IMG/VR virus record: IMGVR_UViG_2939127364_000001
DNA: 64,000 nt
Origin: a virus
Taxonomy: Duplodnaviria; Heunggongvirae; Uroviricota; Caudoviricetes
Reading direction: 5' to 3' (one strand)
Shown one piece after another: positions 48,584-62,217 of the stretch. The notes beneath the pieces were generated by a model. That model did not search any database. It had not been told where the DNA came from and worked only from the letters and a program-made list of their open reading frames with translations. Within the stretch, counting starts at the first letter, position 1; each line of letters starts with the position of its first letter. Position numbers and translations under genes: made by a program.

Positions 48584-49174
48584 CTACTTGTTATAAACAA
48601 AACCAATATCTTTCTTGTGAGGCATATCTGCTGCTGAAAAAGCTGCGATCTTCGCGAGTCGATCACATATTTCATTTTCACGATGCCCGGCGTGACCTTT
48701 AACCCACTTCCAGCGAACATTATGTCGACTTGCGGCCTCATCCAGACGCTTCCACAGATCAACATTCTTTACCGGTTTTTTGTCAGAAGTCATCCATCCA
48801 TTGCGTTTCCACCATTTCATCCACTGTGTCATGCCGTTTTTCAGATACTGGCTATCAGAGTACAAAATAACGTTGCATGGATATTTCAAACGCTCCAGCC
48901 CGATAAGTGCCCCCATCATCTCCATGCGGTTATTGGTGGTGCTATGAAAACCATCTGAGAACTCGCGTTCCTCACCACCATACTGGAGAACTATACCGTA
49001 ACCGCCCGGGCCACCCGGATTTTTAAGGCAAGAGCCATCACTGAAGATTTTCACGGTTTTAAGCTGGGGATTGAACTCTACGACAGGCGTTGTGGAATTG
49101 GTGCGGGGAGAATTTTTGTTTTTGTCATTTTTGCGAGTTTTTGCTTGCGATCGGGCTGGTGTCTTCGTCGTCAT
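48584..49174 (-). CDS. Ribonuclease H (RNase HI-like)
   Basis: FSDGSC..GGYG, ..E..AL, YSDSQY, ..[18 protein letters not shown] catalytic DEDD-type motifs; AGGAG RBS before ATG 49174. Confidence 0.75.
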
Positions 49175-49760
49175 ATAAACTCCTGAATCAAGCGCCGCGC
49201 CGATTTTTTTTTCCTCGCGCGTGCGCACACGCGTGCGTGTTAATAATTATTAAAATAAACAAATTACTTCCCAGAACAGGTTTTTATAAACCTGAACTGA
49301 ACGAACGAAGTGAGTGAAGTTCACCTCGAACGAAGTGAGAGGTTGTCTTTTCAGGTAATACTCTCCCAGGGAGGTGAGTACAAAATTTCCTCACCAACCT
49401 GGTCGTTTCATAACCTGAAAAGTTATGACCTAAGTCTACTGCCAGCTTAGGCTTGGGAAGTTATGGATGACAGCACCCCAGAACCGAGATCTTCCCACAC
49501 TTTATGAAGGGGAGTACTGGATTCAACCTCTCGAAACACCCCAGACTCGACAATCATAAAGTGACCCTTGTCTCTGCTCACTTTGGTTCCCCCTTCCCCA
49601 ACCCCTAAACGGTGCCGGTTCTACGCTGGTAGTGAGCTTTTTTAAACCTGACGCCAGTGACGCTTACCCCCACCCATCAGGTCGAGCCTCCAGTCTACGA
49701 CTGGAAACTATCAGATCTTAGCACTTACAATTCACTTTATGAATAGTTTGTACTTATCTA

Positions 49761-50015
49761 TCATTTCGATTGATTATTTTTTCGACCATGTAGTTGAACA
49801 TTCAAGGCAAACACCTCGTTGATCAACTCACCTAAAAGCTGTTCAACAAGTTCGCGATGCTCCCCAAGATGCAAGCACTTAATTGCCCATTCGTACAAGT
49901 TGAAAGCCTGCTCACGATCTTTCATCATTTCACGAGCCTGGGCCAGAAAATCGCTCTCTACGAGCGCAACGACATTAGTCGGGTATGACATGTTGGTTTC
50001 CTTAAAGTGGTTCAT
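49761..50015 (-). CDS. Hypothetical small protein
   Basis: 84 aa ORF downstream of the long inverted repeat. Confidence 0.3.
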   Translation of the reverse strand: MNHFKETNMSYPTNVVALVESDFLAQAREMMKDREQAFNLYEWAIKCLHLGEHRELVEQLLGELINEVFALNVQLHGRKNNQSK

Positions 50016-50070
50016 AAAATCGATTTTAAAGCGTCTGGGAAGGGGTTCTAGTGGATTCTGTAGTGGTGTT

Positions 50071-58996: not shown

Positions 58997-60902
58997 AGCT
59001 GCGCCCCTCTTTAACTTCGACAGTGATAATTTCCCGGAACCACGATTTCATCTCTTTGTGGGAGATGATCATCACTGTGCCACGTTCACGCGCTTTGGCT
59101 TCCAGAATCCCCATGAGACGCTCCAGACCGGCTGTGTCGAGCGCGTCGTCAATTTCATCACCGATAAATAGCTCGATATTCTTACTGGCGCGACTGGCAA
59201 CCAGATCCTGCAAAGCCAGAGAGCACGCAATACGTACCTTACGCTTCTCACCACCAGACAAAGTCTGGAAGGATTTGCTGGAGCCTGTTTTGATTACGCT
59301 GATATTGAATTTGTCGCGATACTCACCTTTCTTCGTTGTCTCCATTGTCGACCATTCGGCAACGATATTGCCGTCCGACAGCGTGTTGAGATACTCCGCA
59401 GTCCTGATGTTCAGGAAAGGCGTAACGGAGGTCAGGATGTGTGAACGCACGCCTGCTGGGGAGTAAACCTGGCGGGCCTTCTCCAGCAACAGAGCCTGTT
59501 CCTGAATGCTCTTTAACTCATTTTTAAGTACTGCATGATTAGATTTATTGGCAGCCAGGTTGTCTTCATGGCGCTTAATAACGGCCAGAAATGGGTTTGC
59601 TTCCGCCATGATGCGATTCACTTCAGTACGCGCCCGCGCAACCATCGCTTCGACGGCCACAACTTCACGTTCGCGATGACGCAGCGCACTTAGCTCATTG
59701 GTCAGGCGTTCTATTGTGGAGATGATTTCTGAGACGTCGGGTGTGGCTGCGACCAGTGCAGACTCGATACCGAGTGCTTTCTCAAGACGAGTCTTGTGTT
59801 GAGCCACTGCCGCTGCTGATGTCTGCGCAAGGCCGATCTCATTGCGCGCTTGTTCAATGAAGCTCTCCTTCACCGTGGATAAATCTTCTTCGCAGTAGGG
59901 CTTTCCGCACGTAATGCAGGGTGCCCCGATCTTTGTGCTGACCTCTTCAGCTTTGGTTTTAAACGAGCGAGCACGGTTTATCGACTCGTTCTGTGCCGCT
60001 TCTGAAGTACGGATGCTTGAGCGGATCTCAGTAATAGCACTGCGCACCTTCAGCAGTTTGGCGTCATGCTCTTCTTTGGAGGCCAGCTTGCTGCGTTCGC
60101 CAGCAATCGCATTTTCCGTATCACGGATCTGTTCTGGCAGCGAGCGAATTTCCATCTCGACTTCAGACAGTGTTACCTCCGCGCCAGCCAAATCGGCTCG
60201 GGCCTTGTCCAGACGCTCGCCGCGATCGCGCTCCCAGCTTTCAGAGGACGCTTTGGCCGCCTCAATCTCTGACTGTGCAGTCTCGATAAGCGTGAGACAG
60301 GCGTCCATTTTGGATTTGGTAACGTCCATACGTGCGGCAGCTGCATTAGCACGCTCGCGGGCAATGGCATAGGCTCGCGTCAATCGGTCGACGCCAGCAG
60401 CTTCTTCAACGATGGTTTTGAGGCTCTTGTCGGACATACCGGGCAGATCTGGCATCGCTTCCTGACTGGCGTAGATGGACGCCATGAACACCTCTTTCGA
60501 TGCCCCAATCAGACGTTCTACGAACGTCTGTGTCAGCGTGTCCTTGCCTTTGGTCATATCACCGTCTTCACCACGGACGATTAGTCGGTTCTTGAACTCT
60601 TTGTGTTTACGATGGCGAATGATCGCGTATTTCTTACCTTCGTCTTCAACTGTAACCATCACACGGCAGTTCTTCTCATGGCCCGTCGACAGCACGTCAT
60701 CGCCTTTGACGCCATGTGCAGTCTCACCATACAGACACCACATTAAGCTATTCATCAGAGTGGATTTCCCGGCGCCATTGCTGGCAGCAGACGTATCGCC
60801 ACTGTTCACACCCTGGATCAGCACCAGTCCACGCTGGTCTAACTCGACTTCTGCGCTGGCGATTGCCATAAAATTTTCAACCTGGAGCTTTAAAAACTTC
60901 AT
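58986..60902 (-). CDS. SbcC/Rad50-like SMC ATPase
   Basis: N-terminal MKFLKLQVENF...GLVLIQGVNSGDTSAASNGAGKST (Walker A), long coiled coil, C-terminal LSGGEKRKVRIACSLAL and FIGDEIDDALD; track ORF is over-extended to 61148. Confidence 0.75.
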   Translation of the reverse strand: MKFLKLQVENFMAIASAEVELDQRGLVLIQGVNSGDTSAASNGAGKSTLMNSLMWCLYGETAHGVKGDDVLSTGHEKNCRVMVTVEDEGKKYAIIRHRKHKEFKNRLIVRGEDGDMTKGKDTLTQTFVERLIGASKEVFMASIYASQEAMPDLPGMSDKSLKTIVEEAAGVDRLTRAYAIARERANAAAARMDVTKSKMDACLTLIETAQSEIEAAKASSESWERDRGERLDKARADLAGAEVTLSEVEMEIRSLPEQIRDTENAIAGERSKLASKEEHDAKLLKVRSAITEIRSSIRTSEAAQNESINRARSFKTKAEEVSTKIGAPCITCGKPYCEEDLSTVKESFIEQARNEIGLAQTSAAAVAQHKTRLEKALGIESALVAATPDVSEIISTIERLTNELSALRHREREVVAVEAMVARARTEVNRIMAEANPFLAVIKRHEDNLAANKSNHAVLKNELKSIQEQALLLEKARQVYSPAGVRSHILTSVTPFLNIRTAEYLNTLSDGNIVAEWSTMETTKKGEYRDKFNISVIKTGSSKSFQTLSGGEKRKVRIACSLALQDLVASRASKNIELFIGDEIDDALDTAGLERLMGILEAKARERGTVMIISHKEMKSWFREIITVEVKEGRSYVV

Positions 60903-61131
60903 ATAACACCTCTGATATCGTGTGTTAACTTTTGACCATCTTTCAATCTGAACTCCGTATGCGCGGGGAAGGATCTGCGATTCAATAAGCCTTTTCTGGT
61001 TAGCCTTCCAAGATAAAACGCTACGGGATTTCCTCCTGAAGGGTATGGCTTGTGAAACATAACCGTCTGGCCTTTTTGAAGTTTTTTCATCACGATGGCA
61101 AACTCTCGAAAGCTCCCATAATAACGTTGCC

Positions 61132-62217
61132 TCACACAGCCTCCGCACTCTCTGCTTCGGTCAAGATCTCCTGACACAGTATGTCCAGCTTGCTCAGGTC
61201 GAAGCCACCGTCAGTGTCGTGAACGATCTTGCAGTACGCCGCAACGGACTCGCCCAGGCTGTCAATTTTGCTGGTTTCCGCAGTACTGGCAGCGCCTTCC
61301 ATCATCGATGCCTTGCGAATGAAGTTGCAGACGACACCCTTCGCGCCCATTGTTTTCAGGACGTTCTGAAGTTTGATGCCTTCTTCATCGCTCTCAACAA
61401 CGGCACGGAAGCGCACGTAGTTGCCGCGAATCTGATCGTCATCTACATCGTCCTCAAGGTTCACGAATTTAGGTGCCGAGGTTTCGTGGTGAGTGAATGA
61501 GCCGTCCGGTTTGACGATCATGAAGCCGGCCAGTGAACCAACATCCCCCCAATTCTGGTGTGTCAGCGCCCCGATACTTACCACTCCAGGCAGCACTTCT
61601 TTGTGGTTGTGGTAGTGCCCGGACAACAATAAACGGAAGCCGATATCTTTCAGTTCCTGTGCGTCGATGCCGACATCGGGCATGGTGGGGATCGCTTTGT
61701 TGATTGAGGTATGTACAACAACATCATGGTTGTCACCATCCAGCCCGGAACGCAGCGTTTTGAGATCGCTGATAAGTTCTGCGTGGTTATTACGCCAGCT
61801 AATCAGATGGACGGTTACGTCGCCCATTTTGATGGAATGAGGACGTTTGCCGCAGACGATTTCCACACCGATTGAGCGCAGAGAGGCTGCTGCATTGGCG
61901 CTGTATACGGAATTGTTGGTTTCGAGGTCGTGGTTGCCAGCCAGCATTACCACCTTGAGACCCAACTCTTTGATGATCCACTCGTAAGTTTCGGTCACGA
62001 AATGCAGAACGGAAGGTGATATAGCACCGCGAACATGGAAGGTATCACCAGCTACCAGCATGTGCTTACAGCCAGCAGCTTTCATCGCTTTGGCCGCCTC
62101 CTTCGTAGCGTCCAGTTGGATCTCCAGCCGAGAGTTAAGCCCGTCAGCGTTTGTTGTCGCAAAAGCATCCCAACGATGATAATGGGGATCTGATATTACC
62201 CCGTATGGCAATGTCAT
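61132..62217 (-). CDS. SbcD/Mre11-like metallophosphoesterase nuclease
   Basis: DPHYH, GDTFH, GNHD and GHYH calcineurin-like phosphoesterase motifs. Confidence 0.75.
   Translation of the reverse strand: MTLPYGVISDPHYHRWDAFATTNADGLNSRLEIQLDATKEAAKAMKAAGCKHMLVAGDTFHVRGAISPSVLHFVTETYEWIIKELGLKVVMLAGNHDLETNNSVYSANAAASLRSIGVEIVCGKRPHSIKMGDVTVHLISWRNNHAELISDLKTLRSGLDGDNHDVVVHTSINKAIPTMPDVGIDAQELKDIGFRLLLSGHYHNHKEVLPGVVSIGALTHQNWGDVGSLAGFMIVKPDGSFTHHETSAPKFVNLEDDVDDDQIRGNYVRFRAVVESDEEGIKLQNVLKTMGAKGVVCNFIRKASMMEGAASTAETSKIDSLGESVAAYCKIVHDTDGGFDLSKLDILCQEILTEAESAEAV

Follow-up and report, generated by a model that had tools for sequence, protein, structure and literature searches.

Phage-plasmids of the SSU5 supergroup are mostly IncFIB, siphoviral elements with SSU5 as the phage-plasmid prototype, and their persistent genome consists of a structural array with lambdoid-like tail genes and of recombination genes that include resolvases and tyrosine recombinases (Pfeifer et al. 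2021, PMC7969092). One Escherichia coli relative, Cyrano (pLF82), persists as a plasmid with a copy number of 5.5 per cell, forms siphovirus particles, and responds to genotoxic stress by induction (PMC9928086). Among 66,856 isolates from surveillance, 1,377 carried elements of the SSU5 group, and most of these were Shigella sonnei or Salmonella Typhi (bioRxiv 10.1101/2025.09.12.675607). Here we analyzed a 64,000-nucleotide (nt) stretch of viral DNA (IMG/VR record IMGVR_UViG_2939127364_000001; the whole stretch is termed the window herein), with a focus on the gene block at positions 48584 to 62217. A prediction made from the letters of the DNA alone (the original prediction herein) had read this block as a T4/T5-style nucleotide-metabolism and recombination module on an element with a lambda-type tail and had suggested an extrachromosomally replicating phage-plasmid. 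Our analysis indicates that it is very probably the DNA-replication, nucleotide-metabolism, and recombination block of an SSU5-supergroup phage-plasmid that is nearest to the SSU5_pHCM2 group and belongs to an Escherichia sublineage.

Aligned with Salmonella phage SSU5 (NC_018843), the block showed 91% nt identity across 92% of its length, and its gene order and content from the RNase H gene to sbcD corresponded to SSU5_090 to SSU5_073. NrdA, NrdB, and an acetyltransferase aside, all 17 proteins of the SSU5 block were matched in the window, with the order kept and with amino acid (aa) identities of 68 to 99.5%. The two elements also share the tail, terminase, and ParB modules and the replicon type (IncFIB-type in the relatives; iterons in the window). 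SSU5 has nrdAB (SSU5_078/079), which is deleted in the window, and an acetyltransferase region (SSU5_071-072) with no window counterpart, whereas the window, unlike SSU5, carries a type I restriction-modification system, metG/apbC cargo, and an HNH gene. Comparison with known phage-plasmid families, which had been proposed as a check, therefore led to the SSU5 supergroup with its gene order kept. Elements of this kind have already been described in the literature, and the block is an ordinary one. The step from the contents of the window to an extrachromosomal phage-plasmid, with a large-phage type of DNA-metabolism module and a lambda-type tail, was a correct one.

The relatives of the block are located almost entirely on plasmids; this location and the identities of the block's genes were observed directly. 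The block matched 786 plasmids in PLSDB, overwhelmingly non-mobilizable and from Klebsiella, Escherichia, Enterobacter, Yersinia, and Salmonella, with the top matches aligning as a single piece at 96.5% identity. NZ_CP122497.1, the one PLSDB example inspected, is circular and IncFIB, the closest relatives inspected are circular records, and the block aligned at 96 to 98% identity with IncFIB plasmids of E. coli that are circular, non-mobilizable, and about 107 to 114 kb long. The full 64-kb window was collinear, at about 98% identity, with the final 63 kb of pYLMB53a, a circular E. coli plasmid (NZ_CP073940.1; 112,732 bp), and the E. coli and E. fergusonii plasmids pYLMB53a, NZ_CP122497.1, and CP099103.1 were 96 to 98% identical to it and collinear over its whole length; the differences from pYLMB53a lie at 19589-19848, 26029-26041, 32810-33768, and 40837-41390 and comprise short indels and an hsdS that varies. 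The last base of the window is also the last base in the plasmid records of several relatives, and these records open with repA. The block was present in 246 of 5,426 complete E. coli genomes (∼4.5%), in 266 places, 264 of them on plasmids and 2 chromosomal. Contigs carrying homologues of two block-specific proteins were ∼100 to 146 kb at most.

Plasmid-type maintenance functions were found both in the window and in its relatives. The window contains the following repeat arrays:

63459-63913, plus strand: two 21-bp iteron arrays with the core CCACTRTAGNGAG (found with TRF), just upstream of the repA position in relatives

The core CCACTRTAGNGAG occurred 6 times in 63459-63896, compared to 0.16 expected occurrences, so that the iterons named in the original prediction proved to be real, as two arrays with a 21-bp period. 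The repA gene stands at record position 1 in pYLMB53a, i.e., by collinearity, just beyond the window end. Two tandem genes for ParB_N-domain proteins, followed by a gene for an ABC-type ATPase, were identified by Pfam at 19842-21843 on the minus strand, and relatives also carry a MipZ/ParA-like ATPase outside the window-equivalent part (pYLMB53a). Of the replication and partition genes for which a search had been suggested, repA and the MipZ/ParA-like ATPase are thus seen in the collinear relative and the two ParB-like genes in the window itself. A tblastn search with the tyrosine recombinase of pYLMB53a found no integrase in the window. The predicted lack of an integrase therefore holds for the 64-kb window; it does not hold for the replicon type, as pYLMB53a encodes its tyrosine recombinase outside the stretch that matches the window and such recombinases are persistent in the supergroup. 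In the relatives, this enzyme presumably resolves multimers. With regard to virion genes, Pfam identified a major capsid protein, the terminase domains Terminase_6N/6C, and the tail-tip proteins M (Phage_min_tail), L (Phage_tail_L), and K (JAB plus NlpC/P60), in agreement with the lambda-type tail proposed earlier, and the tape-measure open reading frame (ORF) has 1527 aa, compared to 1525 aa in Cyrano (PMC9928086). Taken with the SSU5 kinship, the plasmid relatives, and the 264 of 266 plasmid-borne places, the iterons, ParB genes, and tail and terminase genes support the phage-plasmid reading, and the window is best annotated as a phage-plasmid, neither as a prophage nor as an ordinary plasmid. 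The discovery value of the element itself is small, since phage-plasmids of the SSU5 type are already catalogued.

Some further features of these maintenance regions were observed. Additional short direct repeats, at 63757-63792 and 63343-63410, include one with a 10-bp period, AGAACCAAAG (∼3.3 copies), that lies between the iteron arrays. There is also an approximately 380-bp duplication of the iteron-containing segment (63437-63537 versus 63820-63920; 72% identity). The trio of ParB and ATPase genes is unusual and partition-like, and it adjoins the terminase region, not repA.

The block comprises 17 co-oriented minus-strand genes, and its limits coincide with ORF ends (end of the RNase H gene at 48584, start of sbcD at 62217). 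Every gene from 63258 down to 44824 is on the minus strand. Many neighboring genes overlap, by 1 to 46 nt, which argues for real operons and not chance ORFs. Pfam gathering thresholds served as the cutoff for domain assignments, with PHROG and NCBIfam profiles as additional sources. The genes, together with the scar left by the nrdAB deletion, are as follows:

48584-49228, minus strand: RNase HI (Pfam RNase_H, 154.6 bits, 2.3e-45; NCBIfam ribonuclease HI, 220 bits, cutoff 160)
49761-50015, minus strand: small conserved protein, homologue of SSU5_089 (phrog_5343, 9.8e-53; 84% aa identity to SSU5_089)
50178-50771, minus strand: Dam-type N6-adenine DNA methyltransferase (Pfam PF05869 Dam, 131.9 bits, 2.4e-38)
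50925-51797, minus strand: conserved 290-aa protein (phrog_5235) with an acidic disordered N-terminal half and a C-terminal winged-helix domain
51926-52480, minus strand: DnaQ-like 3'-5' exonuclease (Pfam RNase_T, 76.6 bits, 4.3e-21)
52490-52909, minus strand: conserved protein, homologue of SSU5_085 (phrog_5373, 1.8e-80; 96% aa identity to SSU5_085)
52973-53617, minus strand: P-loop protein whose fold resembles that of nucleotide kinases (Pfam AAA_28, 38.7 bits, cutoff 27; PHROG thymidylate kinase, 6e-10; weak (d)CMP kinase match)
53617-54093, minus strand: dihydrofolate reductase (DHFR) of the DfrA51 type (Pfam DHFR_1, 119.7 bits; NCBIfam trim_DfrA51)
54090-54503, minus strand: small HAD/polynucleotide-kinase phosphatase-like protein (phrog_5387; phrog_415 "polynucleotide kinase," 2.4e-8; Pfam HAD_PNKP, 0.0046, below cutoff)
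54505-55608, minus strand: thymidylate synthase ThyA with an internal insertion (Pfam Thymidylat_synt, 266.1 bits, 3.7e-79, in two stretches; 99.5% aa identity to SSU5_081)
55788-56666, minus strand: MazG-like nucleotide pyrophosphohydrolase (Pfam PRA-PH, 36.3 bits, cutoff 21.3; phrog_671, 8e-46)
56745-56854, minus strand: nrdAB deletion scar (blastn and pairwise alignment to SSU5)
56932-57501, minus strand: putative RuvC-like (RNase H-fold) junction resolvase (phrog_159, 1.7e-53; 39% identical to the resolvase annotated as RuvC-like in phage nickie)
57498-58274, minus strand: putative HNH endonuclease, free-standing and AP2-like in its C-terminal domain (phrog_374, 5e-35, the best of the PHROG HNH families)
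58250-58996, minus strand: 248-aa conserved protein (phrog_2117), overlapping the sbcC stop by 11 nt
58986-60902, minus strand: SbcC/Rad50-type ATPase of 638 aa (Pfam AAA_23, 61 bits; SMC_N, 48.6 bits; 96% identity to SSU5_075)
60902-61093, minus strand: small ORF in the sbcD/sbcC gap, homologue of SSU5_074 (68% aa identity; annotated in relatives; longer reading 60899-61177)
61132-62217, minus strand: SbcD/Mre11-type metallophosphoesterase nuclease (Pfam Metallophos, 38.7 bits, cutoff 21.5; 97.5% identity to SSU5_073)

The predicted co-oriented gene set was confirmed in that RNase HI, Dam, the DnaQ-like, P-loop, and MazG-like proteins, DHFR, ThyA, SbcC, and SbcD all scored above the Pfam gathering thresholds. 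For the SbcD-SbcC pair, Pfam matches and sequence motifs agree, and the RuvC-like resolvase and the HNH half of the "HNH-AP2" endonuclease were recovered with PHROG profiles only; the AP2 half consists of a motif reading and one annotated homologue. Three hairpins were noted in intergenic positions:

48465-48486, minus strand: intergenic terminator-like hairpin plus T run (from a scan at chance level overall)
55702-55725, minus strand: terminator-like hairpin in the gap between the MazG-like gene and thyA, with a 9-bp stem followed by a T run (a consensus match only, from a scan at chance level)
56871-56894, minus strand: hairpin terminator 3' of the RuvC-like gene (10-bp stem plus T run)

In SSU5, compensatory changes preserve the hairpin at 56871-56894 (GACCAC/GTGGTC in the window versus GGCCAC/GTGGCC in SSU5), and the three minus-strand hairpins together suggest several transcription units. 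No Rfam family reached its gathering score in the entire window.

Among the nucleotide-metabolism genes, the DHFR gene encodes an enzyme of the DfrA51 type. The protein scored 351.6 bits against NCBIfam trim_DfrA51 (NF047324; cutoff 322), is identical at 152 of 158 aa to SSU5_083 (AFL47010.1), which is DfrA51, and retains A6, I13, D26, and S48. Mutagenesis showed that these four residues matter for resistance conferred by DfrA51, the DHFR of SSU5, which binds trimethoprim about ten-fold less tightly than does E. coli FolA, and its expression from pET21b and pACYC184 constructs gave trimethoprim MICs (minimum inhibitory concentrations) of 256 to 512 mg/L (PMC12217456). Judged by its sequence, the window DHFR is a DfrA51-family enzyme and is predicted to be of the trimethoprim-insensitive type that is intrinsic to phage-plasmids. 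Antimicrobial resistance pipelines now in use will report a trimethoprim-resistance gene at this position, where an ancestral phage nucleotide-metabolism gene lies with no mobile element adjoining it. For the neighboring ORF at 54090-54503, the assignment as a putative HAD/polynucleotide-kinase phosphatase is weak.

The RNase H domain is complete (aa 58 to 196 of the ORF), and translation of RNase HI probably begins at the ATG near 49174. A non-coding gap of 532 nt (49228-49761) separates the RNase H gene from its neighbor; the 254-aa RNase H annotated for SSU5 reaches into the equivalent region, in which the window has two stop codons, and the annotated SSU5 start is probably over-extended. 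In close relatives, rnhA is flagged as frameshifted by PGAP. The C-terminal winged-helix domain of the 290-aa protein (50925-51797) was modelled confidently, and the protein probably binds DNA; nothing beyond this generic domain emerged for the phrog_5235 protein. Pfam (E ≤ 10) and PDB sequence searches of three hypothetical proteins yielded nothing meaningful. The replicons of the relatives carry the genes for DnaE, a DnaB-like helicase, a ligase, and a 5'-3' exonuclease at other positions.

The sbcD gene lies upstream of and beside sbcC, and reading of the translations revealed the motifs expected from the domain matches. SbcC starts at the ATG at 60902, with AGAGG upstream, and has a GAGKST P-loop, a CITC zinc hook (CxxC) at residues 329 to 332, LSGGE, and a Walker B motif LFIGDE; its AAA_23 and SMC_N matches sit at opposite ends of the protein, giving a split ATPase head with a mid-protein zinc hook. 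The SbcD motifs read DPH, GD, and GNHD. The RuvC-like protein has D11, E80, and D164 as candidate acidic residues, in RuvC-like contexts. All of its 37 differences from the SSU5 protein fall in the N-terminal 120 residues, with the last 69 aa identical, and this mosaic boundary beside the HNH gene would fit a recombination or homing event. Apart from a few distant sequences, the phrog_2117 family occurs only in SSU5-like elements, and its predicted structure has no recognizable fold. This protein could be a novel subunit, accessory or regulatory, of the phage SbcCD nuclease. As a separate possibility, insertion of the HNH gene may have driven the neighboring nrdAB deletion in the Escherichia sublineage. 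Both ideas are speculative, and we give them only a slim chance.

Two changes relative to SSU5 distinguish the block. The first is the HNH gene, which is inserted between the SSU5_077 and SSU5_076 homologues, upstream of the RuvC-like gene. Its motif reads LDRIDSSKGYEPGNLRW...Q..N, with the first-position His missing, its C-terminal stretch ...FTGVHYCKTNKVWVARVVWKGECVFLYQCHDELEAYLARKRF... agrees with the AP2 pattern at the motif level, and one homologue is annotated as AP2 domain-containing. The gene is full-length in about 30 of the 786 related plasmids, identical in NZ_CP032074.1, and annotated at the same position in NZ_CP122497.1; it is missing from SSU5 and from the nrdAB-positive E. coli plasmid pEcoFMU073332c, in which the flanking genes abut. 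At 30 to 45% identity, it resembles HNH/AP2 genes that stand free in unrelated phages, and its distribution suggests that it is probably a patchily occurring homing-endonuclease insertion. The Pseudomonas phage nickie also has an HNH gene in the same slot. A common origin of the two was considered and rejected, as they are not homologous; with an unrelated HNH gene in the same slot of nickie, the junction may be a recurrent homing target.

The second change is the nrdAB deletion. In the scar, nrdB is reduced to its final ∼43 nt (56745-56787) and nrdA to its initial ∼44 nt (56811-56854); 23 nt separate the two remnants, and the start codon of the nrdA remnant has changed from ATG to ATA. The scar junction was contiguous in 36 PLSDB plasmids, including pYLMB53a; in the other 161 matching PLSDB records, among the matches listed, it was split across an intact nrdA or nrdB. 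Escherichia likewise accounts for 36 records among the matches, which suggests that the deletion is confined to this genus. The scar and the HNH insertion are handy lineage markers for the Escherichia sublineage.

Beyond SSU5 and the collinear plasmids, Cyrano (pLF82) and CMS-2020a have the same module at ∼80% nt identity, with nrdAB retained and the rest of the block more divergent. More distant counterparts are the Pseudomonas phage nickie (Nickievirus) and RHEph10-like siphophages of Rhizobium (∼110 kb), which show the order SbcD, SbcC, X, (Y), HNH, RuvC-like, NrdA, with DnaE nearby. Their hosts are distant, their SbcD proteins are 35 to 36% identical to that of the window, and the RuvC-like protein of nickie is 39% identical; the nickie protein downstream of SbcC and the nickie HNH protein have no detectable homology to those of the window. 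Outside the SSU5 group, the SbcD matches among those listed were to RHEph10-like, Nickievirus, and Stenotrophomonas siphophages of ∼110 kb (35 to 36% identity), with weak matches (∼25%) to cyanophages and SPO1-like phages; at an E value of <1e-5, the matches listed included none from T4 or T5 and none from Escherichia or Salmonella outside the SSU5 group. T4 (gp46/gp47) and T5 (D12/D13) have a phage Rad50/Mre11-type nuclease beside ThyA, DHFR, RNase H, free-standing HNH genes, and ribonucleotide reductase (RNR), the last of which the window's lineage shared ancestrally. Their likeness to the window is functional only, with no close sequence kinship detected (for SbcD, among the matches listed), and the window's element is temperate and plasmid-borne. 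The label "T4/T5-style" is therefore a functional analogy; outside the group, SbcD and the RuvC-like protein come nearest to those of siphophages of the Nickievirus and RHEph10-like kinds.

From the known activities of these families, the following course can be proposed. In lysogeny, the element would persist as a low-copy circular plasmid, kept by an iteron-controlled, IncFIB-type RepA replicon and ParB-type partition. Upon induction, the co-oriented block would support rapid synthesis and maturation of phage DNA. ThyA and DHFR would form a thymidine monophosphate (dTMP) cycle, and the P-loop kinase-like protein, the MazG-like protein, and possibly the HAD phosphatase would raise or clean the pool of thymidine triphosphate and other deoxynucleoside triphosphates. 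RNase HI and the DnaQ-like exonuclease would serve the element's own replisome, and Dam would methylate the phage DNA. SbcCD and the RuvC-like nuclease could process ends, hairpins, and branched concatemers ahead of terminase packaging into a siphovirus particle whose tail tip is lambda-type.

Several points weigh against this reading. No record in the phage, plasmid, and E. coli collections was identical to the window (nearest, 96 to 98%), and the plasmid state of the window element would follow from that of its near-identical relatives, with repA lying beyond the window end. The timing and lytic-cycle role proposed for each enzyme come from family biochemistry. In the whole promoter and terminator scan, counts equaled the shuffled expectation. 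The RuvC-like protein had no meaningful Pfam match (E ≤ 10) and no PDB sequence match, and the HNH protein had no Pfam HNH or AP2 match (E ≤ 10) and no PDB sequence match, so that both are PHROG-only assignments. The nrdAB deletion bears on virion production, and some SSU5-like plasmids are reported as non-inducible (PMC8969562). A domesticated or defective phage-like plasmid, which replicates and has no lytic cycle and in which the module is either a relic or of use to the host (e.g., in trimethoprim tolerance or DNA repair), is nevertheless unlikely in our view. The loss of nrdAB with a degenerate scar, the insertion of an HNH gene into the block, and the frameshift flag on rnhA in close relatives speak for it, as does at least one SSU5-like Klebsiella plasmid that the same study presents as plasmid-only (PMC8969562). 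Cyrano provides evidence on both sides: it makes virions, but its virome coverage is inseparable from plasmid contamination, the virions were shown by quantitative PCR only, and their yield was about two orders of magnitude under that of the most active LF82 prophage (PMC9928086). The structural and module ORFs of the window are long and intact, most with 88 to 99% aa identity to plaque-forming SSU5, and its RNase H domain is complete, which argues against a defective element. So does the host class Ia RNR, which could replace nrdAB.

The evidence for an SSU5-type phage-plasmid bears also on two other origins of the gene set. Chromosomal integration had been named as the observation that would speak against a phage-plasmid, and a chromosomally integrated prophage could draw on the 2 chromosomal places among the 266 in E. 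coli and on the tyrosine recombinase of the relatives. It is made highly improbable by the 264 plasmid-borne places, the 786 matching plasmid records, the iterons and ParB genes, and the window end shared with plasmid records that start at repA; besides the metG/apbC cargo, which is also present on plasmid relatives, no host flank is evident. The set of ThyA, DHFR, RNase H, SbcCD, and HNH genes, being functionally T4/T5-like, would also suit a large phage that, like T4 or T5, is strictly virulent. With plasmid maintenance genes present, no T4 or T5 match for SbcD at an E value of <1e-5 among the matches listed, and Nickievirus/RHEph10-like siphophages as the closest non-SSU5 relatives, that origin has practically no standing, and it is refuted by the plasmid records.

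Features were also noted in the remainder of the window. Two chromosome-type housekeeping genes carried as cargo, metG (methionine-tRNA ligase; 34229-36391, minus strand) and apbC (Fe-S cluster carrier; 36420-37520, plus strand), are annotated likewise in pYLMB53a. By collinearity with the same plasmid, the DNA next to the restriction-modification system, at 37557-37946 (minus strand) and just downstream, holds genes for a translesion polymerase subunit of the HumD type and for a theta-like protein of DNA polymerase III. A stretch of ∼960 nt (32810-33768) is unmatched in pYLMB53a, which has ∼23 nt there, and looks like either an insertion specific to the window or a loss from pYLMB53a. On the plus strand, 38649-44765 is occupied by a complete type I restriction-modification system, hsdM-hsdS-hsdR, and the stretch of hsdS at about 40837-41390 that fails to align with the closest relative is a variable specificity region. 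The other half of pYLMB53a encodes a LAGLIDADG homing endonuclease and a GIY-YIG (LEM-3-like) protein (10498-12837 and 34986-35753), and SSU5-like replicons are host to several classes of selfish nucleases besides HNH.

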